From NCBI GenBank assembly GCA_951406725.2, contig OX597836.1:30752001-30816000 (forward strand): DNA of 64,000 nt, read 5' to 3'. The position numbers and the translations under genes were made by a program. Each line of letters starts with the position of its first letter. The stretch's first letter is position 1. The notes under the pieces are model-generated. The model did not search any database. It was not told the origin of the DNA and saw only the letters and a list, made by a program, of their open reading frames with translations. Below are positions 9,790 through 59,645 of the stretch, piece after piece. Source of the stretch: Octopus vulgaris. Its lineage: Eukaryota.

Positions 9790-9836
<47 letters not shown>

Positions 9837-10619: not shown

Positions 10620-10966
10620 CTCACAACATCATAAGCGGAAAGTGTAACCTCTCGAAAGAGCTGTTCTTCACTCCTGCTCCAGAGCGTCGGCTGCGGGGTC
10701 ATTCCGAAAAGCTCTATCTGCGACGATTTCATCTCAATCGAAGGAGAGGGGCTTTCTCCGTCCAGGTTGCGGATCTGTGGAATAAGCTGCCGGACGAGAT
10801 GGTGAAGATGCCGATGACCGCTCGGTTCAAAGTCTCTCTTGATCAGAAATGGCCTGAACTCTTTGCATGAACATCCTCCCTGTACATAACTCCATGTCCC
10901 CCTACATGGCCTTGCTTTTTGCTTTTTGAGCCCAAAAATTAACTAACTTAACTAACTAACTAACTA
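10620..10966 (+). mobile_element. CR1-clade LINE 3' end
   Basis: Encodes RLRGHSEKLYLRRFHLNRRRGAFSVQVADLWNKLP...FKVSLD, a CR1-type ORF2 C-terminus. Followed by a short 3' UTR and a (TAAC)n tail. Confidence 0.8.
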
Positions 10967-11072
10967 AATCAGTTGCTAAATGTCGGATCTTTAATGTGGC
11001 CATGCCGAGGGAAGCAGGATGTTCAGAGTATGTAGAAGGCACTTGTCTAAGATATTGCAACAAGCTGTGGGA

Positions 11073-11314
11073 TTGTTTCAGTCATTTGACTGTGGCCATG
11101 CTGGAGCACCGCCTTTAGTTGAACAAATCGACCCCAGGACTTATTCTTTGTAAGCCTAGTTCTTACTCTATCATTCTCTTAACACAGACACACAAACATA
11201 CACACACACACACACATTTATATATACGATGGGCTTCTTTCAGTTTCCGTCTACCAAATCTACTCACAGAACCATGTGGTTAGTAAGCAAGCTACTTACC
11301 ACACAGCCACACCT

Positions 11315-11318
<4 letters not shown>
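11073..11318 (-). mobile_element. SINE family A, internally deleted
   Basis: Reverse complement of 5058-5411 with gaps. Confidence 0.75.
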
Positions 11319-11353
<35 letters not shown>

Positions 11354-11438
11354 TAATCCAAACAAGAAAGCACAAAAAAACACAACGCGAGGACGTGGAA
11401 CAAATATAGTATTATTGGACGCTCAGGAAAGAAGGAGG

Positions 11439-11473
11439 GTTTAACGTTTCGAGTGGAGCTCTTCGTCAGAAAC
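11439..11473 (-). ncRNA. Minimal hammerhead-ribozyme-like motif in a Penelope-like repeat
   Basis: Minus strand reads GTTT-CTGACGA-A-GAG-CTCCA-CTC-GAA-ACGT-T-AAAC. This gives a CUGANGA/GAAA core, stem II, a palindromic stem III and a 4-bp stem I. Confidence 0.55.
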
Positions 11474-11844
11474 TAAGAGAAGGAAAGATCCAGAGAGGGG
11501 AAGACAGAGGAAAAAAATCGCCAACGGTACACATGCGGTCACATTTTGAATGTTTATATATATATATATATATACACACACATACCAAACAGCAATAGTT
11601 TGATAGTAATGAGCAGATATGAAAAGTTTGATATAGAGATTGTAATAAGTTCAGTGAGAACAGCTAGAGTTTGATCATTTAAGAAAAATGTGCTTTCAGG
11701 TTTATATTTTGCATTTTTAGGTAATGAAGTGGGTGTTTTTTTTTTTTTTGTATTTCCATCATTACATTTTTCATTCACTTTTGAATTACATTTCATTATT
11801 TCATCTCCTAATAATGAAATAGACGGCTCAATTAATTGATAATC

Positions 11845-12078
11845 CTATTTCTTTGTTGCCCACAAGGGGCTAAACATAGAGGGGACAAACAAGGACAGAC
11901 AAAGGGATTAAGTTGATTACATCAACCCCAGTGCGTAACTGGTACTTAATTTATCAACCCTGAAAAGATGAAAGGCAAAGTCGACATCAGTGGAATTTGA
12001 ACTCAGGATGTAACGGCAGACGATATACCACTAAGCACTTTGCCCGGCATACTAACATTTCTGCCAGCTCACCAACCT
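11845..12078 (-). mobile_element. Full-length SINE family B
   Basis: 15-bp TSD aattaattgataatc at 11830-11844 and 12079-12093. Confidence 0.85.
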
Positions 12079-12934
12079 AATTAATTGATAATCTTATCGA
12101 CAACAATTTGTCTTTGAATTTCAGACATTTAAAATGTTCCGATATTCGAGTTTCAGCTTGAGGTTGGTAAACCTGCAAAATCATTACTGTGCCAAACAAA
12201 ATACTTAATGGCCTTTCATCTGACTTTAGCATCATATAGTAATTCTGATTGTCACTCCGTTACTTAGCCCATCCATAACACTTCCGTGTGATTAGTTGAA
12301 GGGGTGGGTAAGGTGGTGGTGAGTGAAATGTGTATTTTTTTTTTTTTTAACTAAGTTTTTGGATAAAGTTTTCAGAAAAAGCCCAACAAGTTTACCATAA
12401 ATTCCACAAAATATTCACAGGACCTGCTAATTCAGATTATTCTGTCAAATGTAAAGCTTATGTATTCACACCATTTTAAATTAATCATGCATTATTTCAT
12501 AGCTTTGAGATTTAATTGATGTGATTGTTTATTTTTAAAATGATACTGTAAGGTAGCTATGAAAGACCACATCTGACCAGTTTGAAGATAAAACAGATAA
12601 AAAAAATTTTGGCCAGATGTGGCTGGTTTAAACACTAAGGGATTAAATTTCACCAAGGTAGACTTTACCTTTCACCTTTCAGGGTTGATTCAATCGACTA
12701 GCCTCTTCCCCTCAAAATATTCAGACCTTGTGCTTATTATAGAAAGAATTACCTTAACCGACTACTCTCATCATCATCATCATCATTTAATGTCTGCTTG
12801 TGCCCATTGTCGAAAGAATATTTCATTTCGGAGTTTGTCTTGTCAGTTTTCCTTCTAAAATTGTTTGAATCATCATTATCATCATCACTACCACTAATCT
12901 CACCATGTTTTATAGTACAATAATCCCTTGCTAT

Positions 12935-13118
12935 ATCGTGGTTCACCTATTGCACATTCAGTACATCACAGTTCACCTATCACACACTCAGTATATCACG
13001 GTTCACCTATTGTGCACTCAGTACATCACTGTTCACCTGTTGTGCATTCAGTACAACACGGTTCACCTCTCATGTACTCAGCACATCACGGTTCACCTAT
13101 CGCACACTCAGTACATCG
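12935..13118. repeat. 30-bp minisatellite, 6 copies
   Basis: Unit atcacggttcacctatcgcacactcagtac in exact 30-bp register. Confidence 0.9.
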
Positions 13119-14512
13119 TTGATTTTTCTGGCTAATATATGTAAATTTATATTGAGGACTCCTAAGTATATCCAGGTTTCTGTGGCTGATAGCTATTTAT
13201 ATTTTTTAAGATTTTGATTATTTCTGTAGGAGGTTTTGAAACATAACACCCACGATAGTTGAGAGATTACTGTATTCTCAAACAATTTCTGTGGGCTATA
13301 AGATAAAAATATATAGTTGTGGAACAAAGATGACAATTATTGTTGCTTAGCCATAGGTCAACCCTTGAAGTATCTAGGACTAGCTCCTTCTGAGTCATAT
13401 AGACTCATGGGGCCAGTTTGTCCATTTTCCGTGATGCATATTCCACCCCACTCCATACCAGACAGAACACCAGTCCATTGCAGAATCCCTCGCTTTTGCC
13501 AGCTGAGTGGACTGGAGCACTGTGAAATGAAACATTTTGCTCAAGGACACAACACATCACCCAGTCCAGGAATCAAAACTTCAATCTTACGATCATGAGT
13601 CCAACACCCTAATCACTAAGCCATATGTCTCCACTATCTAGGACTTCCTCATCTAATATGCCTTTTCATTAGCGAAAGCGAAATCGAATTGAACCAGCCA
13701 GGATCCCTGGTCTGGTGGTACGTAAAAAGCACTATCCGACTCGTGGCCGATGCCAGCGCTGCCTCGACTGGCTTCCGTGCCGGTGGCACATAAAATACAC
13801 CAATCCGACCGTGGCCGTTGCCAGCCTTGCCTGTGCAGGTGGAACGTAAAAAGCACCCACTACACTCACGGAGTGGTTGGCGTTAGGAAGGGCATCCAGA
13901 TAAGACTGGAGCCTGGTGCAGCCCCAGTCGAACTGTCCAACCCATGCTAGCATGGAGAACGGACGTTAAACGATGATGATGATGATGATGATGATTACTT
14001 GAAGTGGTAGGCTGGAAATTTGAGGGAAATTTTGGCTCCTATTCATTTCTAACATGTCAGGCAACTAACTAATTACATACAATAATCTCATGTCAGTAGT
14101 CTTGTTGATTCATACATAGATTATTAAGCTGTTGTTTGAAACTCAACTTGAAATAAAAACAAGTTCTTACATAAAACTATTGGGATCTCTATGTCATTCA
14201 CATAATATCAAGGTTTCTGTTGATAGTTTTATTTAAATATCAAACATTGTAGCACAAGTTGTCTTGAGTATATTTGTAACATTGTAACGAAAGTGGAGGT
14301 TTTGGAGAAGTTTGTATTCAAAGGAGTAATAGTGAAAAATTGACAATATTAATAATATAGAAAACGCATATTAATCCAGCAAAAATATATACTGAAAAAT
14401 ACTAACATTATATTAGAAATTAAACAGTTTTGTTATTAATATATATGTATATATATTGTTAATACCCACACTGAAACCATGTAAAATTTGTGTGGTTTAT
14501 ATATATATATAT

Positions 14513-15404
14513 ATCTGGGACGTAGTCAGTCCACCTGTGCATACCTTCCTCCTTGTGATACTTGTGAAGGCCTGTTGAGGCAAGTGAAAATCAAAATGAA
14601 ATCAAAACAAATCAAATCAAATCAAATCAAAACAAATCAAAATAGATGAACATTAATGGAATTGTATCTTTGTGGTACCAGTGCCGGTGGCACACAAGAA
14701 AACCATCCGAACGTGGCCGTATAGCCAGTACCGCACCGACTGGCCTCCGTGCTGTGGGCACGTAACAAACACCATCCGATCGTGGCCGTTCGCCAGCCTC
14801 ATCTGGCACCTGTGTCGGTGGCACATAAAAACACCATCCGAAGACCCGGCAAGACTAGTCAGGCCATAACCTGTGGCCCCTACCTGGGACGTAGTCAGTC
14901 CACCTGTGCATACCTTCCTTCTTGTGACACTTGTGAAGACCTGTTGAGGCAAGTGAAAATCAAAACAAATCAAAATAGATGAACATCAATGGAATTTGTA
15001 TCTTTGTGGCACGTGGCACACAAGAAAACCATCCGAACGTGGCCGTAGCCAGTACCGCATCGACTGGCCTCCGTGCTGTGGGCACGTAACAAACACCATC
15101 CGATCGTGGCCGTTTGCCAGCCTCATCTGGCACCTGTGTCGGTGGCACATAAAAACACCATCCGAGCGTGGCCGTCTGCCAGCCTCGTCTGGCAGCCTCG
15201 TCTGGCACCTGTGTCGGTGGCACATAAAATCACCCACTACACTCTCGGAGTGGTTGGCGTTAGGAAGGGCATCCAGCTGTAGAAACACTGCCAGATCTGA
15301 CTGGACTGGTGCAGCTTTCGGGCTCCCCAGACCCCAGTTGAACCGTCCAACCCATGCTAGCATGGAAAGCGGACGTTAAATGATGATGATGATGATGATG
15401 ATGA

Positions 15405-15407
<3 letters not shown>
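14513..15407 (+). mobile_element. Long family-C element with ~370-bp internal tandem duplication
   Basis: The block ctgggacgtagtcagtccacctgtgcatacc...(CAAAT)n...ccatccga is repeated at ~14515 and ~14884. The element ends in the family-C core and (GAT)n. Confidence 0.75.
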
Positions 15408-15447
<40 letters not shown>

Positions 15448-15732
15448 TTATTATTATTGTTATTATTAGTGATAGAAGCAGTGTTTGTTCAAATTAGTGA
15501 TCTGTATACATACTGAAAGTGTGTATATTATTGAAAGCTTTCTAACTTGAGATATTCATCTCAAGAAAACATCTCTCATATATTAAAAAACAGAAAAATA
15601 TCAGCAGCAGACACACACACCTGTGTGTGTGTGTATGCTGCTAGCCAGCTCCATGTCAAATTGTCCAACCCATGCCAGCATGGAAAATGGACGTTAAACG
15701 ATGATGATGATATATATATATATGTATGTATA

Positions 15733-15892
15733 ATAAGGGATAACCACTAAGTGGACATCCAATATGCTAGAAGATCATCTACGATCTAACCACAAAGAAA
15801 GAATGTTCTTTAGAGAACATTCTTTCTTTGTGGTTAGATCGTAGATGATCTTCTTCTAGCATATTGGATGTCCACTTAGTGGTCATCCTTAT
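15733..15892. repeat. ~160-bp palindrome within a (TA)n-embedded dispersed repeat
   Basis: Arms pair about gttctttagagaac (~15810). The right arm and its flank recur, unfolded, at ~51100-51300. Confidence 0.88.
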
Positions 15893-16001
15893 ACGCATGT
15901 TTTACAATTTTTCTGAATTTTCAGATTTCTCTATATGCTAGGCTACTGGTTTTAAATCGATGTTAATTAAATTAATATTCAATTTATCACCCTCATTATT
16001 T

Positions 16002-16046
<45 letters not shown>

Positions 16047-16891
16047 TGTATAGGTGTGTGTGTGTGTGCATATATAAATATATATCTTGTGTCTAAGGGG
16101 TATTACTGTGCCTCTTGCCAGACACAAAATTTGTTTCAATGCACAAATTCATATCAAGAATCTTGCAAACCAAAAACAAAAACAATGCACACACATAAAC
16201 ATGTATGTATTGTAAAATATGCCCTAGAAGTATTGTATTTATTGCTTTATACACAAGTGATTTTTTTCTTTCCCTAAATTTTATGCTATGTACCACACTG
16301 ATTGCTAATCTCTGATCGCTGTGAAAGAAAGATTAATTAGGATGAAGTCAATGGTTAATTTCCAGGAGTAATGATTATTGATTTTCCTTGGGAGCATGAT
16401 TGCTGATTTTCTCAGGTTTTTGTCTATTATTTATATTCATCTTTTGACAAATAGAAACATTTTTCTTACTGTGTTCATATATTAACCTTTTTGATACCAA
16501 CCCACCTGAAATGGCCCTTGGTTCTGTGATATAGATTCCCCATTTTAAAGAGGTCTAATTTAAATCCTTCATCAAAATTTCTTGTCAATGCTTTAAGATA
16601 AAATATGAGCTTAATAATGATAAAGGCAGTATATCTCAACAGAAATATAGCAAGAAAAGAGTTAGAGATATCTAAATTAGAATCATTCATCAATTGTTAA
16701 TTTTTTAAAGGCAAAATTTGATTAATAAGGATATAGTCATTTTACTAAATTCTTTATTATTTTCAAATTAACTGAAGCAAAGGCAGTGTATTTCAACAGA
16801 AATATGGTAACAAAAAGTTTAAGGAGATCTAAGTCAAAACCTTTAATCAAAATTTCTTGTTCATTTTATATACCAAACATGAACTTAATAG

Positions 16892-17273
16892 TACTCTTTA
16901 CTCTTTTACTTGTTTCAGTCATTTGACTGTGGCCATGCTGGAGCACTGCCTTTTAGTCGAGCAAATCGACCTCAGGACTTATTCTTTGGAAGCCTTGTAC
17001 TTATTCTATCGGTCTCTTTTGCTGAACCGCTAAGTTACGGGGACATAAACACACCATCGGTTGTTAAGCGATGTTGGGGGGACAAACACAGGCACACACA
17101 CACATATACGAAGGGCTTCTTTCGGTTTCCATCTACCAAATCCACTCACAAGGCTTTGGTCAGCCTGAAGCTATAGTAGAAAACACTTGCCCAAGGTGTC
17201 ACGCAGTGGGACTGAACCTGGAACCGTGTGGTTCGTAAGCAAGCTTCTTACCACACAGCCACTCCTCTGCCTA
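16892..17273 (-). mobile_element. SINE family A
   Basis: Near full-length reverse copy, inserted among fragments of a second TTAA-type MITE (~16481-16822). Confidence 0.82.
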
Positions 17274-17897
17274 TATTTTTAATGATAAAATTATTTTACT
17301 AAATTTTTTATTTTCAACAGAAACATGATAACAAAAAGTTTAAAGAGATCAAAGTTAAAACCTTCAGTCAGTTATTAATTTTTTAAAGAACTTAATGATA
17401 AAGTTATTTTACTAAATTCATTATTTTCAAAATTATAAAAAAAATCATCCATTTCTAAGTATATTGGTTGCTGTAGTATGGCTTTAGCTGCAATGGGCTA
17501 AAATATAATGAAGAACTTATTATTTCTGATAGAATGATTGGTCTGTGTTTGATTTTGTCTTTTGATGTTAGTATACATTTACTGAAATTCTCAAATTGAT
17601 CAGATTTGAAGCTCTGCTTATTAAAATGTCATGTTTTTATATTTATATATATGTACAATCAATACAAACCTACCTACATACATATATATATGTGTATACA
17701 CACACACGCATGTACATGTGTACATTACATATGTACATATCTATATATGTATATATATATGCATGCTAGCATGGAAAACGGACGCTAAACGATGATGATG
17801 ATATATATATATATATACATATGTGTATTTATATATGTATATATATATGTATGCATGCATGTATGTATGTGTGTGTATCTATCTATCTATCTATCTA

Positions 17898-17938
<41 letters not shown>

Positions 17939-18049
17939 TTAGAAGTTGAGGAAATACAATTTATTTATCAATTATTTCTTCTAAGTACATTTTTTTTCCA
18001 TATAAAGGAAATTAATTAAAACTAATGGTGTGTTCAGTGATTGCTTTTA

Positions 18050-18101
<52 letters not shown>

Positions 18102-18505
18102 ATGCCTGTGTGTGTGAAGGTTATCAGCTGTTTGTTGAAAGAAGGCAGGAATTCAAGCATTTTTAGAAAATTTATTTGCTTGGCTTGGGGCGGGGGTGGG
18201 TGCAATGAATAGAAGTGAGAACTAATAAATAAATTATATTTCTCCAACTTTTACTAACTTTGTATTTATTGTTATATATAATATTTGTACACCACTATGG
18301 ACAGTGTCATAATATATGTTTTTGTGTTCCATTTAATTTTGAAAATAATCATGAATTTGCAGTTTAATATTGACAAAAATACTTAATTTTTTTGGCCAAT
18401 ATTAAACTGGTTCACAACATAACTCAAGAAAATGGTCTCAGAGAAAATTGTAATGGATAGTTTTAATTGAAAAATGAATACTTTAAAAGTACGATTGTCT
18501 ATAAT

Positions 18506-18750
18506 CGGTGCGTGGCTTAGTGGTTAGGGTGTCAGCATCATGATTGTAGCATTGTGGTTTCGATTCCTGGACCAGGCGACGCGTTGTGTTCTTGAGCAAA
18601 ACACTTCATTTCACATTGCTCCAGTCCACTCAGCTGGCAAAAATGAGTAATGCTGTGATGTTCTGGCGTCCCGTCCAGCTGGGGAACACATACGCCATTG
18701 AAACCAGGAAACGGGCCCATGAGCCTGGCTAGGCTTTAAAAGGGCACATT
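18506..18750 (+). mobile_element. tRNA-derived SINE family D
   Basis: Head ggtgcgtggcttagtggttagg...ggtttcgattcc, then cttgagcaaaacactt. Relatives at ~13390-13635(-), 47918-48065, 55907-56220 and 56470-56588(-). Confidence 0.75.
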
Positions 18751-18850
18751 TATTATTTATTATTACAATAGAATTAGATTTGAACTTAGATGAGTCGGTA
18801 TCGAAAGTGTTAAAATAAGGTAATGGCATTATCTCAAGGCTATAAGTACT

Positions 18851-19116
18851 GTTATGGAAAAAGTGTGTAAAATGTATCCCTGTAGTTATAGGTGCATTAG
18901 GAACTATCCCTAAAGATTTGAACAGATGGATTGAGGAAATAGGTATAAAACCTAGTTTAGTGCAACTCCAGAAAACAGTGTTATTAGGGGCAGCTAGGAT
19001 ACTTAGGAAGGTTATTGGCATCTAAGGTTACTTGTATCCTGATGTTGGGAATTTTGCTTTCCCACCAGTTTAATCTATTGTGCATATATAAAGTAATAAT
19101 AACAATAATAATAATA
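18851..19116 (+). mobile_element. R4/Dong-like non-LTR retrotransposon 3' end
   Basis: Encodes LWKKCVKCIPVVIGALGTIPKDLNRWIEEIGIKPSLVQLQKTVLLGAARILRKVIGI followed by a stop, typical of a restriction-like-endonuclease clade C-terminus. Then a short UTR and (TAA)n. Confidence 0.75.
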
Positions 19117-19725
19117 ATTTCAAATTTTGGCACAAGAGAAGCAGTTTTGGGCTTGAGGGTAAGTCAATTACATTGACCCCCAGTGCTCAATTGATATTTA
19201 TTTTATTGACCCTAAAAGGATGAAAAGCAAAGTTTACCTCAGCGGCATTTGAACTCAGAATATAAAGACAGATGAAATGCCACTAGGCATTTTGCCTGGT
19301 ATACTAATGATTTTGCCAGCTTGCCACCTTAACCCTTTAGTGTTCAGATTACTCTATTAAATGTAATATTTTTTTACTCAAATTGTTTTTAATTAATCCT
19401 GCATTATCTTATAGCTTTGAGGTTTCAGTGATGTGATTGTTTATTTTTTGAATGTCAGTGTAGATTAGGTGTGAGTGGCCAGATATCACCAGTTTGAATA
19501 TAAAACAGGGGAGAATATTTGGGCCGGATATGGCCGGTTTAAACACTAAAGGGTTAAAAATACTACTACTACTAATAATAATAATAATGATAATAATAAT
19601 GATTCAAAATAATCATGCAAGTTTTAGATAGTTGAAAAGAATAGATAACATGGTACTGTAGGCTACAGGTAGCAAACCCTTTATACATGCAAGACTCCAA
19701 AAATTCCAACAAAACTGGAGTTAAA

Positions 19726-19757
<32 letters not shown>

Positions 19758-19860
19758 TAATAATAATAATGTGTGTATGTGTGTGCTTCAGTAACATACC
19801 TTGTGTTGGTCATTCATGTTAACAGCTGGGCAGAAGCTAACTCATCAGAATGCAAATATC

Positions 19861-22800
19861 TTAATACATAAAATTATTGATGTTTCTTCTCTCAGCACTG
19901 TCATAATGTGTGTTGTTATTTTTGTTGCTATTGTTGCTGTAGTTGTTGTTGTTTTTGTTGTTGCTGTTGCTATTGGCATTGCTCTTTCGCTCATCTCTTA
20001 CTTCTCCACTGTCGTTGTTGTAATAGGCGTCGGTGCCAAATATCTCATCTTGTTCGTCTGAAGCTGGATAGGCAGTACCTCTGGTGTGCGATGTGTAGCT
20101 GCTTTCTACTCGGTTGCTTCTTCCAATATCGTAATACTGGTTGTTATTGTAATTGTGCTCTGCATTGTATCCACTTTTGGTATTATATCTGCTGAATGGT
20201 AGATTATGCATCCTCTGCATAGAATGGACATTTGACCTGCTGTTAGATTGGATCATATGTCTACCTCTTTTCGACCCCATATTGTAGTTTGGTTGACTGT
20301 TGTAATTAGAGAAAGGGTTGTTGTTGTAACCCCTGTTTTGATTGTGATAGTATCCCTTTGGATTTGTGTTGTAAAAGGGTTTACCAAACAATCTAGACTC
20401 ATAGTTTAACCGATCAAAACCTTTGTCGTAACCCGAGTGATCCGACATTGTGCCATATCCAAATCGATTGGATGTTGTATCATGAATTCCTCTATTCATC
20501 ACGTCAAAATTTCGACGTCTAAAATCCCTATTAAATCCTTGTCTGTTTGAATTAGGTAAATTAGGTAAATACCTGCCAGGATTGCTTTCGTGCCTTTGAT
20601 TTATGTTGTAGTTTGGTCTGCCATAATTCATGTTCTGTTTGTCAGCACTTTGATTTTCATCTGGATCTATTCCTGAATATATCGGATTCCTTTGATTGGC
20701 AGCCATTTGAATCTTGTGCAGCAACGAATTCTTGTCGGGATATTCTTTGTTAAACATAAACAATTGACTGTTGACCGGGTCGTGGTAATCACCATGATAA
20801 CTTCTGCCGTTGTTAGTTGGTGCTTCTCCAGATTCTTCCGAGTCTTTGTCTCCTTGTGCACTGTTATCGGCCAAGGTGTTCGATTCTGCTGGATAAAGAT
20901 CCATATTAAATGCTGGTCTTTCTGCTGAGGATATAATATCTCCTGCTCTTAGTCTTTCCATGTGTCTAACTCCACCGTATTTACTGTGAGACAACGCTGC
21001 GCCTTTAGTATCTTCATCACTGCTTTCATCAGATCCATCTTTTTTTTCTTCGTCCTCTGGAATGTTCATCTGACCAGCTTCGCCATCAAGTGGAAAGTCC
21101 AAATAGTTTTCTGCACCATATGGAGGGCTTAGAAAACCGTCACCTGGATACATCCCTTCATACCTGTTCTTGTCTATCATGCCATTTTGCACACCAGTTG
21201 GCACATTATGTTTGTGATTGTTGCCTTCTTCAATAGGCAGCAGATGAGTCCCGTACTCCTCGCCAACTTGGCCTCCATATGGAATTCCATATCCATCTAT
21301 ACCAGAGTAAAGATGCGGGATGCCATGCTCGTCAATTCCTGGGTAGAGATGTGGGATTCCATGTTCATCTACACCAGGGTAAGCATGTGGGATTCCATGT
21401 TCATCTATTCCTGGGTAAAGATAAGGTGTTTTATGATCGTCAGTTCCTGGCTGGTTCTGTGAGTTACTTCCTTTCGTGTCTGTCGTATCTGCCTCTTGCT
21501 GGCCTTGTTGTTCCTGACCTGCCTGTTCTCCAGTTTCACTCTGTGCTGTTTTAGACTCATCCGTTTCTTGTTTGTTGGTTGCTCCTGATTCTTTATTTCC
21601 TGGATAATCTTGAGAAGAACCATCAATTCTTTGAAAAATTGTTAAGTTATCTTGAGAATTTTGCTGTCCGGATCTTGTTTCTGGTTCTATTGTACCCAGT
21701 TCATTCCGACTGTCTTTTGAAATCCAAACAATGCCAGCATTACCAGATTTTCCATTTTCAGAAGGTTGATTCTCTTCTGTTTCCTGGCCTTTGTCTGGTT
21801 GTAAAGGATAATTCATTTCAGGTGTATAATCAACTCTTGGATCGTGAGCACGAATGGCCATTGGTTGAAATCGCCGTTTCCTTGATAATCCATTTGTTTC
21901 TGAGTTTTCATATTCACTACTACGAACAAATGTCCGTTCTTCTTTGTCAGAGACCTCATAATCACTGTCTTTTTTTTGAGGGCCTTTGAAGTTCCTTTTG
22001 TTTCCATGCTGCTTTCCAAATAGACGTGAACGAGTATTGAACCTAGTTTTACGGTGTTCATCTGCCTCAGAGCTTTTCTTGGTTCCATGTTCCATTTCAT
22101 CTGGTTCAGTTCGCTGTCCTGAGCCTGAGCTCTTTTCAGATTTATTGAATTTACTCCAAGAATGACCTGCTGAATAACTATCTCCTGCCTCGTATTCTTC
22201 ATCAGCTTCCTTGGGTACACCTGGTTGTGGAGTTGCTCTTGGTTGTAGCAAAACAAAATTGTCTGAACCTCGGTGTTGTTGCTGTTGCTGTTGTTGTTGC
22301 TGCTGCTGCTGTTGTGGCTGTTGTTGTTGTTGTTGTTGTCGTTGTTGAGGTGGTGGTTGTTGTTGTTGAGGTTGAGGTTGTTCTTGAAGTTGTGGCTGTG
22401 GTTGTGGTTGTCCTTGACTTTGGGTATCGGCTGGGTTGCTATCTACTTTACGATGTAGTCTAAGTCTCAGTTCTGCCGTGGGACTTGTCGAAGGAGGAGC
22501 TGTGCTAACCGTAACAGTTTCGGTAGTTTCCCCAAGGTTTTCTTCCGGCGTGCTCTGCACGTTTGGTGCACTCTCGAAAAGCAGCTCCTGGGGAAATAAA
22601 GGTGGTGAATCACTGGCAAACACCATGGGTGTGTCATTGACACCGATTCTTTCTTGTTGCGCAAGGGTTTCAAGAATCTCTGGGCTTAAAAAACTGTAAG
22701 CTGCCTGCCGTCTTGCTCTATGCAGTACTCTCCGTTTATTTGTGCCATCAGAATAAAAGGTATTATCCTTAGTAGTTAGGTTTCCACTTAGTTTCTGCTT

Positions 22801-23064
22801 TCTTGCTCTGTAACTTTTGAGTTCGTTCTTGAGTCTTTGTAATAGTAAGGCGTGTACTTTTACATTTCCAGACATCTTCTCAAATCTATGTTCCAAGAGT
22901 TGTAGTAGGTGTTCATTCGAATTGAGCTTCTTGACCAAAAACCGAACCATCGTTTCGAAATTGGTCTCTTCTTCGGCAGACCGTGCTCCTGCATTTGGCC
23001 GTGCTGTTATAGTAGCAGCACTATATAAAAGCAGGATCAATCCCAAGGCGAATGCTGTCTCCAT
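19861..23064 (-). CDS. Intronless nested gene: secreted, low-complexity ~1067-aa protein of unknown family
   Basis: 3.3-kb stop-free ORF (19861-23163) with no TE insertions in otherwise repeat-riddled AT-rich DNA. The second ATG (23064) has a strong context, ATAATGG, and is followed by signal peptide METAFALGLILLLYSAATITA. Internal 36-bp repeats differ mostly at synonymous sites. Confidence 0.88.
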   Translation of the reverse strand: METAFALGLILLLYSAATITARPNAGARSAEEETNFETMVRFLVKKLNSNEHLLQLLEHRFEKMSGNVKVHALLLQRLKNELKSYRARKQKLSGNLTTKDNTFYSDGTNKRRVLHRARRQAAYSFLSPEILETLAQQERIGVNDTPMVFASDSPPLFPQELLFESAPNVQSTPEENLGETTETVTVSTAPPSTSPTAELRLRLHRKVDSNPADTQSQGQPQPQPQLQEQPQPQQQQPPPQQRQQQQQQQPQQQQQQQQQQQQQHRGSDNFVLLQPRATPQPGVPKEADEEYEAGDSYSAGHSWSKFNKSEKSSGSGQRTEPDEMEHGTKKSSEADEHRKTRFNTRSRLFGKQHGNKRNFKGPQKKDSDYEVSDKEERTFVRSSEYENSETNGLSRKRRFQPMAIRAHDPRVDYTPEMNYPLQPDKGQETEENQPSENGKSGNAGIVWISKDSRNELGTIEPETRSGQQNSQDNLTIFQRIDGSSQDYPGNKESGATNKQETDESKTAQSETGEQAGQEQQGQQEADTTDTKGSNSQNQPGTDDHKTPYLYPGIDEHGIPHAYPGVDEHGIPHLYPGIDEHGIPHLYSGIDGYGIPYGGQVGEEYGTHLLPIEEGNNHKHNVPTGVQNGMIDKNRYEGMYPGDGFLSPPYGAENYLDFPLDGEAGQMNIPEDEEKKDGSDESSDEDTKGAALSHSKYGGVRHMERLRAGDIISSAERPAFNMDLYPAESNTLADNSAQGDKDSEESGEAPTNNGRSYHGDYHDPVNSQLFMFNKEYPDKNSLLHKIQMAANQRNPIYSGIDPDENQSADKQNMNYGRPNYNINQRHESNPGRYLPNLPNSNRQGFNRDFRRRNFDVMNRGIHDTTSNRFGYGTMSDHSGYDKGFDRLNYESRLFGKPFYNTNPKGYYHNQNRGYNNNPFSNYNSQPNYNMGSKRGRHMIQSNSRSNVHSMQRMHNLPFSRYNTKSGYNAEHNYNNNQYYDIGRSNRVESSYTSHTRGTAYPASDEQDEIFGTDAYYNNDSGEVRDERKSNANSNSNNKNNNNYSNNSNKNNNTHYDSAERRNINNFMY

Positions 23065-23154
23065 TATAATGAAAAATACTGGAAATGTTGTACAGCAGTT
23101 ACTACTAGACAAGATCTGCCACCTGCTTCTTTCTTCCCCTCTAGCTAGTGGCAC

Positions 23155-23189
23155 TCTGATCATGGTTACTAGACAAGCTGTCTTAAATA
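23155..23189 (-). promoter_or_regulatory. Candidate TATA-like box plus initiator for the nested gene
   Basis: Minus-strand TATTTAAG (23189-23182) lies about 30 nt upstream of an Inr-like TCAGA (23159-23155) and about 125 nt upstream of ATG 23064. Confidence 0.35.
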
Positions 23190-25329
23190 TCTGGATATAT
23201 CTTTGTTATTTTACTCTCCCCTACCTTTCACTGTCTCATCATATACCTTTGTCTGACTAAATGACTTCAAAACTTCAAGGTGAAATTAGATACACCGGAT
23301 ATTGTTATAAATAATAGAAAACATCTCAGGGCTTTGTTTTTGCTTTAATTTTATCTTTTTCTGTCTTTGTTTTTTTTCATTTCTTTTTTAAAAATTTTGT
23401 CCTCGCTCCATCTTTGTTTTCATTTCTCTCTCTTATATTTTTTTCATCATTGCTATGTTGCTTTTTTTTTTCTTTTTACTTATTTCATTTTATTTTTTTC
23501 CACTACTATTGTCCTCACTCAGTTATTCTTCCTTTCAAAAGTCCCATCGTGTGAAACTTGTTCAACCCTAATTCTTACCTGTATCATTTACATTTACTTA
23601 CAATAATTGCTGTCACAAACAATGATTGCCTTGTCGTCTGGCATATTCTGTCAAACTCAGAAGAAAATGACTTTCTATCCACCTTGCTATTTTCTGCCTT
23701 GTTCATTCCTTTTTTCATTTGTTGTAAAAACTGATTTGTTGTTGCCGTTGTTGTTGCTGTTGTTGTTGTCGTCATCGTCATTGTTCTTGTTCAATTTCTC
23801 TTCTCTTATGTTAAAACACCTTACATTTATTAATTTGCAATCAGTAAAACGAATCTAATATAAACAGCCTGACTAATGCATACATCATGTCAATTATGTA
23901 TGTCAGGAGGGGAGAATGTAATCAAACTGAAGACGAAAACAGTTTGCCAAAATTTCCTCAACCACCCCTACCCATCATATCAGTGGAAGATGAGGGCTTG
24001 GTTTTTCTTTGCTTTTTGTTGGGTTTTTTTTTTTGGAGGTTTTTTTTTAATAATTTTTTTTCTCCTCCTGTACTTTGTATTTTTAACCTGCATCAAAAAA
24101 TTATGTTTTCAGTGTTGTTCTTTCTTATATCCAAACAATTTTGCCATGGACTATGCAAATTATTAAATAGCTAGCCAACTTGACATTTGCATCTCTATTG
24201 CTAACAACTAATTTCACGAGAAGACACTTACAAAATATAGCAATCTTCATTGTGCAAGGAAACTCATTTTATTTTATTGTCTCATTTTGTTCATTTTAGT
24301 TTCTAAGTTTGAACACTTAAACATTTTTTTTTTTTTGCTGTCATTCTTTTCTTTCATATTTATCAAAATATGAAATCTTTTTCAGTAATTTTTATTTTAT
24401 TTTCTACTATGAACATTAAAAAGAATTTTTTAAATGAAAATGAACATGCAATTACCGTTTGAATTCCTGTTTTTGTGTTATTGCATTTTACCTTGGAAAG
24501 ACTATTTTACGACTTGACTGTTGAGTTCTCTCAAAGGAAATATTCTTTTAAAATCAACAAATGAACAGGTCATTATGATTTGAGCCAATCCTTATTCAGA
24601 GTTATTGCCCATCTAGATAAGCTGAGAAGTTATTTCTTGCTTGCATGTTCTGTTTTGGCATGGTTTCTGAGGCAGGTTGGCCTTTCTACCAACAACCCAA
24701 CTGAGAGGCACTGGGTGCATTTTAAGAAAGGACCACCTTGAGAGTTGTTCTGTCTCTTTCTCTCTCAAAAAACTAAGGAGAATCTCTTTTCCTTGAGTTG
24801 TCTCAATACATTTGTTCTTTTCTTTTTCATGCAGCTGGATGGGAAGAAAGCAAGAGAGAGGGTGGGGAGTGGTTGAAGAGTAAAAGAAAAGAAGAACCCA
24901 AAGAACTGGAGTAAGAGGGTGATGGAAGAGAGAATATTGAGGAATAGAAAAGGGAGGGACAGTCAGCTACATGATGATTGTTGGTAAGCAGGTTGAATAG
25001 AAACAGCATGAGTAGAGTGATGAAGGCAGAGAGAGAAAGAGAAAGGAGGCAATGTATGACAACAGGTGATAGAGGGGGAAGTAATTTGAGAGAGTGTTGG
25101 CTAGCAATGAAAATGGTTGATGGCCCAAGAATTGGATGTGATTGGAGTAAATAATAAGTGATGGTGGGGAATAATGGGAAAGTGAGAGAGAGATTCAGAA
25201 AAGGAGTGATGGTTAAGTAATAAAGAATGGTGGTGGTAATAGGATTTGAATGTAGACAGATGTGCTGCCATCCTTTGTTATGAAGGCATCATGATAGGAG
25301 AGTATTTATTGATAGGTTGAAAGTTGAAT

Positions 25330-26845
25330 CTGTACATTCATATTTATGTGTAATTTTTTGGAAATCTTCCAGGCAACAAGCCACTAGAGGCTCATGAATA
25401 CACATATTGCTGCACTTTCTAGTAGATTTTAGTTTGGATAGATTCAACAATCCAGCATCCGCTTTTGTATGAATACCTCCCCCAGCACTTGTGTGAGTTC
25501 ATTTGTCAATAGTACCCAGAAGTTATGCAAGTAGGGTTTGAGCAAGTATGCAACCCTGCTTTACTTCCTGGGCAACCAGAAAAAGGGCTAAGCTATTGTT
25601 CCCTTGAGAGATTGTGGCAGATGTATATGACAGACCGAAAAAACTGCTTTATTATCTAATCAAATTTGTCTGGAAACCCATATCTTTTGATCAGGTCAGT
25701 GCTAGGAAGTGTGGGGCCTAATTAGAGAATTGTCAGTGGGGCCTTCTTCTCTACAAAAGCAGAAGTTTGAGGTTTTACACTTTGTGTAGTATGCCAGTCC
25801 CAGCCAAAAAGCATTGAGGGCTTGAGGCTCCACCATTAGCCACAATGATTGACTAAAAGTTCATCATAGCATCCTCTGCTCAAGTGTGTGTATGGGGCCC
25901 TCATGGGGCCCAGTTTGACAAAATTTATCTAGTTGACTTAGAATGAGGGCTTACAGATCCTGCTTAAAAACTTATGAGCAGGGTCTGTAAGTTCTCACTT
26001 CCCATACTGTTGAAAGCCTCCATAATGTCAGTAAATATGATGAAAAGTGGGATGTTTTTCTTTTACAGCCTTTTTGTGAATTTGTTGCAAGGTGAAAATA
26101 ATACTGTTGGTGTTTCTTGACATGCAACGTCCATACCAGCTTTCTGGCAGAATTAGCTTGGATACTTTTTACGGTCTCTCCAGTAGCATTTTTGCTAGAA
26201 TTTTCGCTGCAATTAACAGAAGGGAAATTCCTCAATAATTTCCTATTTCTTTATTGCCCACAACGAGCTAAACATAGAAGGGACAAACAAGGACAGACAA
26301 AGGGATTAAGTCGATTACATCAACCCCAGTGTGTAACTGGTACTTAATTTATTGACTCCGAAAGGATGAAAGGCAGTTGACCTCAGCGGAATTTGAACTC
26401 AGAACGTAACGACAGGCAAAATACCTATTTCTTTACTACCCACAAGGGGCTAAACACTGAAGGGACAAACGGATTAAGCCGATTATATCGACCCTAGTGC
26501 GAAACTGGTACTTATTTTATCGACCCCGAAAGGATGAAAAGCAAAGTCAACCTTGGTGGAATTTGAACTCAGAACGTAATGGCAGACAAAATGTCGCTAA
26601 GCATTTCGCCCGGTGTGCTAATGATTCTGCCAGCTCGCTGCCTTAATTCCTCAATAGTTTCCACAATCCCATTTAGTCACTCTTCCACATGTAAATGGCA
26701 TCCTTGGATTCTTGGGGAATATTACCAAATTGCCTAATTCTCTAAAGAATCAGAGAAGTCTTTTCCTTTTCACCATTTATGTAGACAGTACCATTTGTTT
26801 GCAGTCCAACCATGAAAGTATGTCCTAGCTTTTTTTATGTCTTGA
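25330..26845 (-). mobile_element. Decayed RTE-clade LINE reverse-transcriptase fragment, interrupted
   Basis: Frameshifted motifs IPQESKDA, DCGNY*GISLLLIAAKILAKMLLER, LILPES, IIFTLQQI, FTDIMEAFNS and EVKQGCILAQTL. Interrupted by a SINE dimer and by unrelated sequence at ~25697-25955. Confidence 0.7.
26244..26644 (-). mobile_element. Dimeric SINE family B
   Basis: Two tandem family-B units. An 18-bp TSD, aattcctcaata(a/g)tttcc at 26226-26243 and 26645-26662, flanks the whole dimer. Confidence 0.85.
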
Positions 26846-27120
26846 CATGTTGCATGCTTATTATAAACAAAATACCTCCCCATCCACACAAATGCTGTTG
26901 TTTGTTTCAAGTCCTCTGTCAAAGCTGTTTGCTGGACTGGACAAATATTTCCTTACTTGGAAACAGATAAGGGTTGGTGACAGGAAGGGCATCCAGCTAC
27001 AGAAGCCTATATCTCAATTTAGTCTTGTCTAATTTCATACAAGCATGGAAAAATAGATATTATAGCAATGACAATAATAAATATAATATATTATGATATT
27101 ATATAGTACAATATAATATA

Positions 27121-27518
27121 TCTTTATATATAAAAGTGAAGTTGTGTGTCTGTCTCCTACGATTTAGATTCCTAACTGCTCCCACATTTTGCGGTGCAGT
27201 TTAACCAAAACCGGGTATCTTATAGTCGTGATTCATATCGAGCCCTTCTGGGTATTAGCGCGTGTCTACGATGAATCTACGATTTAAAAAAAAATTTACC
27301 ATCATTTTTTTCCATTTTAATGCATTTTTTCGCTATTATATAAGGGAAGTAACTCTCTAAAAATATCTACGATGAGTCAACGATTTAAAAAAAAATTTAC
27401 CATCATTTGTTTTCCATTTTTAATGCATTTTTTTGCTCTTTTTTGGCTATAACTCTCTAAAAATGCTTATATAGTTATTTCCCTTACAAACCCGAGCAAC
27501 GCCGGGCGATACTGCTAG
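27121..27518 (+). mobile_element. Non-autonomous Helitron
   Basis: 5' A|TC, 3' CTAG|T, subterminal hairpin cccgagcaacgccggg, no TSD. Contains an internal ~100-bp duplication. Confidence 0.8.
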
Positions 27519-28408
27519 TTATAATATAATATGATATGGTATAATATATATGTATAGTGCAGGTGTGGTTGTGTGGTTAAGAAGCTTACATTCTAACCCT
27601 ATATAGTCTTGGGTTCAGTCCCACTGCACAGCAACTTGGACAAGTGGCTTCTATTATAGCTCTGAGCCAACCCAAAGCCTTGTGAGTGGATTTAGCAAAT
27701 GGAAACTGAAAGAAGCTTGTCATATTTATGCATGTGTTTGTGTGTTGTTTTGTTTTGACATCATGAGATGGTTATAAAATGAGCATTTAGCTTGTTTCCT
27801 ATCTTATATTTGCTGTCGTCATTATCATCATCATCATTATCATTTAACATCTGTTTTTCCATGCTTGCATGGGTTGGACAGTGTGACAGGAGGTGGCAAA
27901 TCAGAAGACTGTGCCAAGCTCTACTGCCTGCTTTGGTATTGTTTCTAAGGTTGGATGCCCTTTCTAACATCAACCTCTTTACAGAGATTACTGTACGTGG
28001 CTGATGCCAGCGCCGCACCGGTGGCACGTAAAAAGCACCAACCAATCATGGCCATTGCCAGCCTCCCCTGGCACCTGTGCTGGTGGTACGTAAAAAGCAC
28101 CCACCATACTCACGGAGTGGTTGGCATTAGGTAGGGCATCCAGCTGTAGAAACACTGCCAGATCTGACTGGAGCCTGGTGCAGCCTCCTGGCTTCCCAGA
28201 CCCTGGTCGAACCGTCCAACCCATGCTAGCATGGAAAACGGACGTTAAATGATGATGATGATGATAATATATATATATATATCGGAAAACGGACGTTAAA
28301 CGATGATGATGATGATGATGATGTATATATATATATTTATATATATATATGAGAGGATACTGAAAGAAGCAGTTGGAGGCCCAATTTTCCAAGTTCTTTT
28401 ACAGTGTA

Positions 28409-28462
<54 letters not shown>

Positions 28463-30264
28463 GATAGATAGTCACTAGGAATATCACTAATCCAATTACA
28501 CGCTTAGAATGATGTCGGTTATTTTAACGTTAGTTTGGTAATAATATATTTGACCCTGCAGACACTTCATTATCAACCTGGCTACTTTTGTTTAACTGGG
28601 AACTTACACAACAAGTAGAATATTTTTTCACCAGCTGTGCATCATGCCAGACCTGTCATTGTGGCTACGATTCTGACAGTGTTACTCTCTCAGTCATGTT
28701 TGTAAAGTTACAATAACACTGTTAAATAGTTTAGTTTAGTTGAAGAGGCTTTCCTTTTGTTTTGTTTTTTGAGGTTTTTTTGTGCCAAGTTTTTATTTGC
28801 TTTTTTTTTTTTGTCTTGTCACTTTAAATTTCTTATTTCTTCATGACCAAGTTTTTTAGTTGACACTAAAATATGTAGTTTTTTTATAATTTTATTTTAG
28901 GATTTTTTTTTGTTACAGTTTCTTTTGTAGTTATGTGGTGGGGGTTTTTTTGTTGTTGTTTAGTCATAGGTAAACCCTGATCAAGAAGGCCTATGATAAA
29001 AGACATTCTATCCTTGATCATCCCATTTATTTTTTGTTTTTCTTTCTCATTGATTTATATAGGTTACTTTATTATAATCAAGTTTATAATGACACTAAAA
29101 TATGTATTTAAAAAAAAAATTATTCATTCTTGTGGTTTTTGTTGTTGTTTGGCCTCTGATGAAACAGACCAGTGATTAAATGCCTTCCAGCCTTGACAAT
29201 CCCCACCTTTCTCATAAATTGTGATGTTTCTCCAGATTTCATTCTTCATTATCCACTTATTTTCTTTAAATGGTAGAGGGATGATTTGATGGAGATATGG
29301 CTGTTTTTTCTTGCAAGTTGAATGACCTGATCGTCCCCATCATGGCTATGTCTATCTAACCTGATATATTAACCATTTAGCATTTAAATTGGCCATATCT
29401 AGCATAGATATGTTCGAAGTTGCCAGATCCAACCTCTTACACCTATTCAACAATGTCATTCTGAAAATAACAATCACATTCTGATCTTTTATTTTATGAC
29501 TGTATCAAACAGGTGTAGCAAGGCAAACTTGTCTGTGTCTAGGTGACAGGATGTCCTGTAAAATTTTGTCTGAAGGAAAGCAATGGGAGAAAAAAAAAAC
29601 CTTTTGTTATTCTCTTCTAAAAAGTTCATTGACTTGCACAAAATGCTTGTCAGGGATTGTTCATTGATTTGATGGTACAGAATAAAGAATATGAGGTAGA
29701 GACCATTACAAGAAAATGTCCTCAAAATATTTGGATCTGAGTCATAGCATATTTAACTCTTTAGTGTTTAAACTTGCCATATCCGGCTCAACTATTCCTA
29801 TGTGTTTTATGTTCAAAACAGCCAGATCTGGCCTCCCACATATACCCTATAATATCATTCTAAAAATAAGCAATTTACATCACTGAAGTCTCAAAACTCA
29901 AAGGCAAATTATGATTAATTCAAAACAATGTGAATAAATAAGCATTACATTTGATAGAGTAATCTGAATGCTTAGGGTTAAACTGGCCTTATCTAGCCAA
30001 AATACTCTTACCTGATTTGTGCTCAAAACAATCAAATCAGGCTTCCCACACCTACCCTACAATATCGTTCTAAAAATATTCAATCACATTAATGAAGTCA
30101 CAGAGCTACAAGATAATGCCTGATTAAATCAAAGGAATGTAAATAAATAAGCAGAAGGGTAATATTCCTTACCATCTGGAGTTTTGATTTGTTGACAAGG
30201 TGTTGCTGGCAACATGTTTTATTCAGATTTATACTCTACAAAAAAAAATCTATGAGATAATGCA

Positions 30265-30507
30265 TGTTGAGCCTCATTCCTTTCTAGTGTTGGGCCTCAT
30301 TCCTCTCGACTGTTGGGCCTCATTCCTTTTGAGTGCTGGGCCTCATTCCTTTTGAGTGTTGGGCCTCATTGCTTTTGAGTGTTGGGCCTCATTCCTTTCA
30401 AGTGTTGGGCCTCATTCCTTTCAAGTGTTGGGCCTCATTCCTTTCCTGTGTTGGGCCTCATTCTTTTTGAGTGTTGGGCCTCATTCCTTTTGAGTGTTGG
30501 GCCTCAT
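30265..30507. repeat. 23-bp minisatellite, ~10 copies
   Basis: Unit gtgttgggcctcattccttttga, running directly into a family-C-like element. Confidence 0.9.
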
Positions 30508-30848
30508 AGAGGCAATGACCGAAACTTTGTTGTACTTGAGAAGAAGACCCATCAAGCCGAGAAAAATTACAGTCACAGCAGATACTGGTGTCACGCAAAT
30601 GGCACCTGTGCCGGTGGCACAAAAAAGCACCCATTACACACTCAGAGTAGTTGGCATTAGGAAGGGCATCTAGCCATAGAAAACCATGCCAAATCAGACT
30701 GGTGCCTGGTGCAGCTTTTCAGCTTAGCAGCCCTGGTCAAACTGTGCAACCCATGCCAGTATGGACAACAGATGTTGAATGATGATGAGGATAATGATGA
30801 ATAAATAAGCATTACATTTAATGGAGTTATCTGAATGCTAAACGGTTT

Positions 30849-31075
30849 CACCCTTTCATTACCAACCCGGCAAAAACTGCCTCTGGCTCTGTAGTACAAA
30901 TGTCTTGTTTTCTTAGGTTTTGAATTAAAATCTTCCACCAAACCTTAGTCACAATTTATGTTACTAATACTAGCTTAATGGTAACTAAGTTATTTTACTA
31001 AATTCTTTGTTATATTTAAAGTAATTGAAAGAAACACAGAGCATCTCAAAATAGATACGGTAATGAAAGGGTTAA
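30849..31075. mobile_element. Second piggyBac-like MITE
   Basis: Termini ccctttcattacc ... ggtaatgaaaggg-TTAA. Related to 16481-16822. Confidence 0.65.
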
Positions 31076-31283
31076 CCTAGTTGAGGTGCAGATATTACCT
31101 TTTGTGGTTTAGAAGTTCTCTTTGCAGTTATTTAGGTTGGGATTCAATGTCAATGCACAGCACCTGGAACAAACTTCTACCATAACATTGGGTTGACTTG
31201 AATTTTGTGAGTAAATTTGGGTAGATGGAAACTGTGTGAAAGTCTGTTCAATAGATTAAATCTGTTCTTGGGTGATAGACTTA

Positions 31284-31794
31284 CCGTAAATCCTCGAGTA
31301 TAGTCCGCCCTTGAGTATAATACGCAGGGGATTTTTAGGGGGCTGTACCTCTGAAAAACCTAAACCTTGTGTATAATACTCACCCCATCTCTATCTTAAG
31401 TCAAGGAGGTCTATATAACGTCCTTGGTTTGTAAAAATGTATACGGTAACGTCCTTTATTATTATTGTATATATAGCATAATGCAAACGTGTAGCTTTTT
31501 TGTGCATTTTGTTTGCAGAAAATAAAGAAATAACAGTAATAACGTTTAATAAATGTTGCTTACTGCAAGTTATGGATGATTCTTTTATGACTTCATTGCT
31601 TTGAAGCTTAGCTTAAGGTTTTTTTGCATCCGACATCACAAAATGCGTCTGAATACACATAGCCAGACAGCAAATAGAGACTTGGACATTGCTTAGAAAA
31701 TATTTTTCATTTTTAACCTCATATATAGTACACACTAGGGATTTTGACCTTTAAATTTGGGGGGAAAATGTGGATTATACTTGAGGTTTTATGG
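31284..31794. mobile_element. Tc1/mariner-superfamily (Tc2-like) MITE
   Basis: TA|CCGTAAATCCTCGAGTATA ... TATACTTGAGGTTTTATGG|TA. A partial end copy lies at ~8702-8790. Confidence 0.75.
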
Positions 31795-31961
31795 TAATTT
31801 GTAGCTTGGTTTGATACCACTATAACTGGGTTTTTGGGTGCTGTTAGCAAGATCTACTGTATTGCAAGTGAAGACACACACATGGCCTTGGTTTGATTTC
31901 CAGACTGTTAAATTTCAATCAGTGATTGGTAAATCGTGTTTTTTTTTCTTTTTTTTTTCAG

Positions 31962-59640: not shown

Positions 59641-59645
59641 TTTAA

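Follow-up and report, generated by a model that had tools for sequence, protein, structure and literature searches.

A conserved, single-copy octopus gene nested antisense in a DNAJC21 intron encodes a predicted secreted, disordered proprotein

We analysed a window of 64,000 nucleotides from Octopus vulgaris (contig OX597836.1). Its plus strand carries a gene with DnaJ, zuotin-homology, zf-C2H2_jaz, and C-terminal C2H2 finger domains, which is the DNAJC21/Jjj1 layout. One intron of this gene (8478..31961, plus strand) has a GT donor at 8478 and an AG acceptor at 31961, and its flanking exons join in frame. Antisense within this intron, the list of open reading frames for the 64-kb window contains a stop-to-stop frame of 1114 amino acids (19861-23205, minus strand, as are all features of the nested gene below); in 30 shuffled windows, stop-free frames reached at most 181 amino acids. 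MED17 lies 37 kb away. From Met 23064, the frame encodes a protein of 1067 residues plus the stop codon (P0001, 19861..23064). Each of three segments of the ORF gave a single match in the genome, so the gene is single-copy, and in DNA-sized runs the depth was 2.6-9.8 over the ORF bins versus up to 10^6 over the flanking repeats. As the ORF has no transposable-element domain and only one genomic copy, a transposon origin is ruled out. The original prediction of an uninterrupted antisense ORF in a DNAJC21 intron, free of transposon insertions, was thus correct; its term "intronless" holds for the coding sequence only.

The nested ORF is a real gene. We found full-length orthologues in O. sinensis, in Argonauta, and in two more distant records, with about 43% identity across lineages. 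The RefSeq protein of O. sinensis, which the original prediction did not mention, is identical at 1059 of 1063 aligned residues, and the figure for Argonauta, whose gapped model is without two blocks of about 75-90 residues, is 69% of aligned columns. (The O. sinensis and Argonauta entries are automatic records.) One of the distant records probably sits on a MED17-bearing contig, and we infer that the gene is present in squid or cuttlefish. The dN/dS check and the search for a conserved ORF that the original prediction had proposed both came out in favor of a gene: relative to a run from the sister species (X9), 17 of 18 differences over 1014 of the 1067 codons were synonymous and one was non-synonymous (pN/pS ~0.02, P < 1e-7), a ratio that is a best case because the RefSeq O. 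sinensis protein has four substitutions.

The protein does not belong to any family that we searched. Pfam gave no families for the whole of P0001 (E ≤ 1) or for three orthologues, and for six pieces of P0001 (E ≤ 10) it gave only sub-cutoff matches, mainly to generic coiled coils. There were no matches in the PDB by sequence and three by profile, at E values of 0.37-1.6. A profile search for wider homologues returned the same four proteins; none of 1201 candidates was a shorter homologous protein; and none of 313 and none of 411 stretches from the metagenome scans were confirmed. (The ESM Atlas gave no usable match, which shows neither absence nor novelty.) Among five representative matches, P0018-P0020 aligned to the repeat region only, and we dropped them by inspection as chance. 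An origin of the mature protein from MED17 was rejected as well (hhalign probability 0.2%, E = 0.27; pairwise scores were reached by 39-220 of 300 shuffles). Together with the orthologue set, the profile, Pfam, and PDB searches support the view of a lineage-restricted protein. The RefSeq name of the O. sinensis orthologue, a GATA-finger protein, is wrong: C-x-x-C is absent from all five proteins, and P0001 contains no cysteine at all, as had been noted for its mature chain. Our search of the open literature found no paper that names the gene, its four accessions, or four conserved peptides, and only an irrelevant use of the RefSeq misname. The readable supplementary files of PMC9712504 and the supplements of PMC9795677 held no match to the gene. 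The supplements of PMC9839350 list a protein of the same name under a different accession (XP_029638168), which we did not take to be the nested gene.

Translation probably begins at Met 23064. In the alignment, P0003 and P0004 have their first Met at this position, and the models from Argonauta and ENA start at its counterpart. The RefSeq O. sinensis model (P0002) begins 33 codons upstream, at an in-frame ATG (23163) in the leader (23065..23164). Contigs from two putative-RNA runs cover this leader, although contig coverage gives neither strand, start, nor level. A unique intron bin (17610-17974) was uncovered in both of these runs and was touched by DNA-sized runs, but absence of cover is not proof. 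The leaders of the distant orthologues are unrelated to the upstream extension and differ from each other. Hydropathy and the aligned first Met both agree with the signal peptide that had been proposed from Met 23064, which we predict to span residues 1-21 (23002..23064): residues 3-15 are the sole hydrophobic stretch (KD11 of 2.6; the best KD19 past residue 25 is 0.45). The mature chain is predicted to start at a conserved R-P.

Most of the mature chain appears to be disordered (92-97% unfolded by FoldIndex; mean AF2 pLDDT of 33), as had been expected. A coiled coil of seven heptads lies at residues 36-85 (22810..22959); it is conserved, overlaps low-confidence AF2 helices (30-93), and is longer than the heptad-like segment first described; its a/d score was reached by none of 20,000 shuffles. 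A conserved S29-A-E lies just before it. The other elements of the original prediction are all present as well. By sequence and alignment, an S/T/P-rich stretch (residues 165-263, 22276..22572) includes an octopod-specific poly-Q/P tract at 215-263. His/Asp/Gly/Tyr repeats of 12 residues occupy 550-597 (21274..21417). In the distant orthologues they are expanded to about 10 units and accompanied by a Tyr/Asn/Gly 9-mer repeat. Conserved acidic S-x-E clusters at residues 669-689 and 733-747 (20824..21060) are followed by a basic, low-complexity region rich in Asn, Tyr, Gly, and Arg (residues ~790-1000, 20065..20697; the segment 761-1000 has a pI of 9.8) and then by an acidic C-terminal segment (19864..20061), in which three S-x-E sites and the aromatic end are conserved. 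Overall acidity is modest, with 14-19% D+E per piece, a mature pI of 5.4-5.8, and about one S-x-E per 80 residues.

Two furin-type sites, overlooked in the original prediction, are conserved. Site 1, R-A-R-R (116-119, 22708..22719), is R-A-K-R in both distant orthologues and is missing from the gapped Argonauta model; site 2, R-K-R-R (395-398, 21871..21882), is R-x-R-R in all four aligned proteins. Site 1 is followed by a conserved putative new N-terminus (residues 120-137, 22654..22707), a helix with S127-P-E, and site 2 by a highly conserved block (residues 399-456, 21697..21870). The predicted pieces are ~11, 26-32, and 76 kDa, of which the first and last are constant in length (96-98 and 669-678 amino acids). 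Beyond the core of the coil, both distant orthologues keep seven basic pairs or clusters (88, 118, 395-397, 674, 850, 1026, and 1059), and the best-kept cleavage sites are furin-type. None of the octopod proteins has an amidation signal. A suspected resemblance between residues 120-137 and secretoneurin had no Pfam support and was rejected.

The S-x-E serines are also conserved. Both the S and the E are kept in the distant orthologues at 10 of 13 S-x-E sites, versus 16 of 80 other serines (Fisher P = 1e-4), and the control motifs are rarely kept (S-E, 0/7; S-x-x-E, 2/8; T-x-E, 1/8; E-x-S, 1/6). On sequence grounds this pattern is a Fam20C signature, so that the clusters are predicted phosphosites, and the genome encodes a Fam20C-family locus (best PDB matches FAM20C, E = 3e-42, then xylosylkinase, E = 2e-18). 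In SIBLING proteins, S-x-E is a target of Fam20C, and knocking Fam20C down disturbs the nacre of oysters (PMC5824888). Of 46 phosphosites in the Lottia shell, 16 fit Fam20C motifs, and S-x-E phosphorylation is found in about 24% of human secreted phosphoproteins (PMC4094399). Because secreted proteins in general carry this modification, it is no indication of mineral. The cross-lineage conservation of the coiled coil, the two furin-type sites, and the S-x-E serines is, for these predicted features, newly reported here.

We propose that the nested gene encodes a furin-cut, Fam20C-phosphorylated, mostly disordered proprotein that acts as a calcium-binding extracellular matrix scaffold; the leading candidate site is the statolith (probability roughly 0.4). 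The signal peptide would direct the chain into the ER; the seven-heptad coil would oligomerise it; Fam20C in the Golgi would add phosphate at about ten of the S-x-E sites; and furin would cut the chain into three pieces, namely the basic coil (11 kDa), a middle piece of 26-32 kDa, and a last piece of 76 kDa, the latter two each beginning with a conserved block. In the last piece, acidic phospho-clusters and His/Asp repeats stand next to the basic Tyr/Asn/Arg-rich block, and this piece would condense with Ca2+ and organise the deposition of CaCO3 or of matrix. The processing steps by themselves are quite probable. The weak point of the model is its mineral-matrix role; polyanionic mineral nucleators are far more acidic than this protein. 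Also, the distant orthologue cluster was seen on 20 Logan contigs versus 47 for two similar MED17 records, a weak hint of expression wider than one small organ.

The three functional roles named in the original prediction are all still live candidates. As a granin-like cargo, the protein could instead be destined for the dense-core granules of neurons or endocrine cells; it would condense in the trans-Golgi, package peptides, and be cut at basic sites, with some fragments perhaps acting as signals. We consider this possible but rather unlikely. Granins are more acidic than this protein, whose mature pI is 5.4-5.8, and the best-kept sites here are furin-type. Secretion, disorder, acidic S-x-E patches, predicted phosphoserines, acidic sites for tyrosine sulfation (Y291 and Y413 are conserved), and basic cleavage sites would be shared with chromogranin B and secretogranin II (PMC9526250), and the basic pairs that both distant orthologues keep, with conserved blocks after cleavage sites, fit as well. 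But neither the whole protein (E ≤ 1) nor its six pieces (E ≤ 10) matched Pfam Granin; the granin C-terminal motif, the disulfide loop, and an octopod amidation signal are all absent; and the basic block and His repeat are unlike granins. Given the S-x-E conservation, the two conserved furin sites, and the lack of both a conserved amidation signal and a granin signature, a phosphorylated matrix scaffold is slightly favored over a classical prohormone.

A non-mineral structural secretion (of beak, radula, sucker cuticle, cartilage, or the egg or spermatophore coat), in which the furin cut sets off assembly and the Tyr/His-rich repeats serve for cross-linking or metal binding, is unlikely. It would suit the modest acidity, the expanded 12-mers and added 9-mers of the distant orthologues, and the finding that Asp (34/63) and Tyr (26/52) are the best-kept common residues across lineages. 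Yet Pfam found no chitin-binding or collagen domain in P0001 or three orthologues, and the G-H-G-x-Y motif of squid beak histidine-rich proteins is absent from all five proteins (a different motif, G-H-G-Y, occurs three times in one distant orthologue and once in the other). Structural secretions often come from fast-evolving multigene families, and this gene is single-copy and slowly evolving. Far less probable is a start at ATG 23163, as in P0002, giving a type II membrane protein from which furin would release the ectodomain as a ligand. With its short tail, hydrophobic stretch, coiled coil, and furin site, the layout is reminiscent of shed type II proteins, but the upstream extension is unconserved, the Argonauta and ENA models omit it, and no folded ligand domain was found in the AF2 model, the Pfam pieces, or the PDB profile search. 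Last, low-complexity tracts favor open frames, so a repeat-maintained frame or transposon remnant might be imagined; this is refuted by the selection pattern and is at odds with the full-length orthologues, the single copy, and the lack of a TE domain, which leaves it a negligible chance.

The phosphorylated matrix scaffold that we prefer has parallels in vertebrates. Vertebrate SIBLING/SCPP genes are multi-exon, with phase-0 introns, and descend from SPARCL1, a structure that the single coding exon of the nested gene does not match. The Starmaker-like proteins of the fish otolith are reportedly phosphorylated (work cited in PMC12746419). With these and with DMP1, DSPP, osteopontin, and enamelin, the nested protein would share secretion, disorder, acidic S-x-E clusters for Fam20C, and proteolytic processing (for the Fam20C link, PMC5824888). 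It differs in lacking sequence homology to them, in its N-terminal coiled coil, in its much lower acidity, and in coming from a mollusc; also, RGD is absent from four of the five proteins and occurs once, unconserved, in P0009. The statolith proteins of Lolliguncula brevis (Durholtz et al. 1999, cited in PMC6597576) reportedly include a dominant one of ~115 kDa for which databases offered no homologue. The calculated mature mass of the distant orthologues is 113-114 kDa, but as only masses are compared this is a lead and not evidence. Statolith matrix proteins are poorly characterised (PMC6597576), and passages of PMC3669312, PMC10658180, and PMC12746419 gave no statolith protein sequences. 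A bolder idea is that the product of the nested gene dominates the organic matrix of the cephalopod statolith, and that the gene is an invention of the coleoids, convergent with the Fam20C-phosphorylated, protease-processed disordered scaffolds of vertebrates. This is speculative, and we think it doubtful.

Neither nested genes nor disordered secreted proteins confined to one lineage are rare, which makes the surprise here moderate. Even so, the gene is undescribed and misannotated; it is single-copy, and its constraint is unusually strong for one that encodes a disordered protein. As found, it occurs in octopods and two more distant records only, and its conserved features make a concrete, testable processing model. 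Should the protein prove granin-like, it would become a candidate scaffold for the granules of cephalopod neurons. Should it prove to belong to the statolith or to a matrix, it would exemplify convergence with the phosphoproteins of vertebrates and would give a handle on the biomineral that is used for ageing cephalopods and has poorly known proteins (PMC6597576). And if it is the dominant statolith protein, the growth of the statolith and its daily rings would become genetically testable.

The minus-strand frame at 19861–23205 is the only long one in the window, with 1,114 codons from stop to stop, versus a maximum of 181 codons in 30 shuffled windows. From the methionine at 23064 it encodes a protein of 1,067 residues (P0001) with no cysteine. 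The frame lies in a GT-AG intron (8478–31961) whose flanking exons join in frame and whose host exons match DnaJ, zuotin-homology, zf-C2H2_jaz, and C-terminal C2H2 domains, which we take to be the layout of DNAJC21. The original prediction, a long uninterrupted ORF antisense within a DNAJC21 intron and lacking cysteine in its mature chain, is borne out on both points. The same intron also holds a tandem array with a unit of ~25 bases (about 30280–30500) and a short frame (10565–10942) that resembles the last part of a reverse-transcriptase ORF from a LINE. Broken reading frames at 58836–59686 look, by motif, like a fragment of what we presume was a hAT-type transposase.

Four of the 24 listed sequencing runs were compared with the window. 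Contigs from a sister-species run (X9) differ from the nested gene at 18 letters, with 17 synonymous changes and one non-synonymous change across 1,014 of 1,067 codons (pN/pS of 0.015–0.026, P < 10−7). This signal of purifying selection is weakened by the O. sinensis RefSeq orthologue (P0002), which has four substitutions relative to P0001 (one within poly-Q), but it still stands. Each of three segments of the gene has a single match in the genome. Transcription is likely because contigs from two small runs, guessed to be RNA, span 19800–22266 and 22426–23144 or 23164; in both runs the cover is interrupted at poly-Q.

Full-length relatives number four among 7,971 scored candidates: P0002, P0003 from Argonauta hians, P0004 (ENA), and P0005 (from the Logan contig collection; a cluster of 13 members). 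Identity to P0001 over aligned columns is 69% for Argonauta and 43–44% for P0004 and P0005. The last two are 85% identical to each other, so they count as about one lineage, and their distance suggests a squid or cuttlefish. A search of 1.84 billion representatives gave five hits. Just two of them, P0003 and P0004, are relatives along the full length; the rest match the repeat region and were dropped. Neither a profile search nor a search among shorter proteins added relatives. Together with the low pN/pS, these relatives answer the earlier expectation of a conserved ORF: judged by sequence, it is a real and strongly constrained gene.

P0004 shares its source and its longest contig (98,380 bases) with P0025, a MED17 record that is 91% identical to octopus MED17. 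The two are probably on one contig, and hence the linkage of the nested gene to MED17 is probably old. Octopus MED17 is a single-copy, intronless coding sequence of 621 codons on the minus strand of the neighbouring stretch (L004:3667–5532, or G000:C23:30735667–30737532); it is head-to-head with DNAJC21, with start codons about 560 bases apart. A short way upstream of Met 23064, nine in-frame codons encode exactly residues 523–531 of MED17 (window 23095–23123 and L004:3941–3968, both minus strand, 39 kb apart). The DNA is identical at 24 of 28 positions, with mismatches at third positions, and none of 200 shuffles reached the nine-residue match. The merged pattern has no third place in the genome, and the match is missing from the distant orthologues. 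It could be a short piece copied from MED17, or else an unusual chance match. A MED17 origin for the mature protein was rejected by sequence comparison.

The only hydrophobic stretch of P0001 is its N-terminus. Met 23064 aligns across species while the extensions upstream of it differ, so the earlier RefSeq start for P0002 is probably wrong. Its GATA-finger name is probably wrong as well, since the protein contains no C-x-x-C. As originally predicted, there is a helical, heptad-like segment (seven heptads at residues 36–85, conserved in the distant pair and matched by none of 20,000 shuffles) and the chain appears intrinsically disordered (the remainder is 92–97% unfolded by FoldIndex, and mean AF2 pLDDT is 33). 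Two conserved furin-type sites, R-x-[RK]-R, end at residues 119 and 398 (the Argonauta model is gapped over the first), and a conserved block starts directly after each. The predicted pieces are 98, 279, and 669 residues (96–97, 223, and 676–678 in the distant pair). Beyond the second block, the chain runs through 12-mers of His/Asp/Gly/Tyr and a pair of acidic clusters to a basic block of Asn/Tyr/Arg/Gly (pI 9.8), and its C-terminus is acidic.

The strongest functional clue is the conservation of S-x-E motifs. Ten of 13 are conserved in both distant orthologues (8 of 13 in all four proteins), versus 16 of 80 other serines (P = 10−4). Control motifs are poorly conserved (S-E 0/7, S-x-x-E 2/8, T-x-E 1/8, E-x-S 1/6), and S-x-E is mildly enriched over local shuffles in all four proteins (p = 0.017–0.045). 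S-x-E is the site phosphorylated by Fam20C (PMC5824888, PMC4094399). The octopus genome has a FAM20C-like locus (G000:C5:20815603–20818796, plus strand, with an exon closest to FAM20C); an exon at another Fam20-family locus (G000:C1:56296364–56319917, plus strand) is tied between FAM20C and xylosylkinase.

We propose that the protein is secreted, that its chains oligomerise via the N-terminal coil, and that it would be phosphorylated in the Golgi and then cleaved by furin. We give this predicted processing a probability of about 0.75. The 76-kDa C-terminal piece (residues 399 onward), a block polyampholyte, might then condense with Ca2+ as a matrix scaffold. A mineral-matrix role is a tentative reading, somewhat short of even odds: acidity is modest (D+E 14–19%), and S-x-E is widespread among secreted proteins (PMC4094399). 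Conserved additional basic pairs would instead fit a granin-like role, which also agrees with chromogranin B as described in PMC9526250, but profile and motif tests for it failed and we consider it rather doubtful. Conserved tyrosines and the His repeats could point to a structural role that does not involve mineral, which seems unlikely.

If the protein does act in a mineral matrix, the statolith is the lead candidate site because it is the carbonate structure common to octopods and decapods, because its matrix proteins are little characterised (PMC6597576), and because Durholtz et al. reportedly found in 1999 a dominant unidentified protein of ~115 kDa, compared with a calculated 113–114 kDa for the distant orthologues. 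That this is a statolith matrix protein is nevertheless improbable; the distant orthologue cluster turns up on 20 contigs in Logan and the similar MED17 records on 47, a weak hint of broader expression.

No paper in the searched literature contained the gene's accessions or any of four conserved peptides. The single-cell study supplements searched held no row attributable to it, and further supplements may hold tissue data. Pfam, PDB, and Atlas searches matched no family, in agreement with the first reading of the sequence, which recognised none. In its proposed mode of action the protein resembles the SIBLING/otolith phosphoproteins and the granins, but by the membership tests run it belongs to neither. 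Our verdict is that the nested gene represents a real, strongly constrained, and undescribed family.
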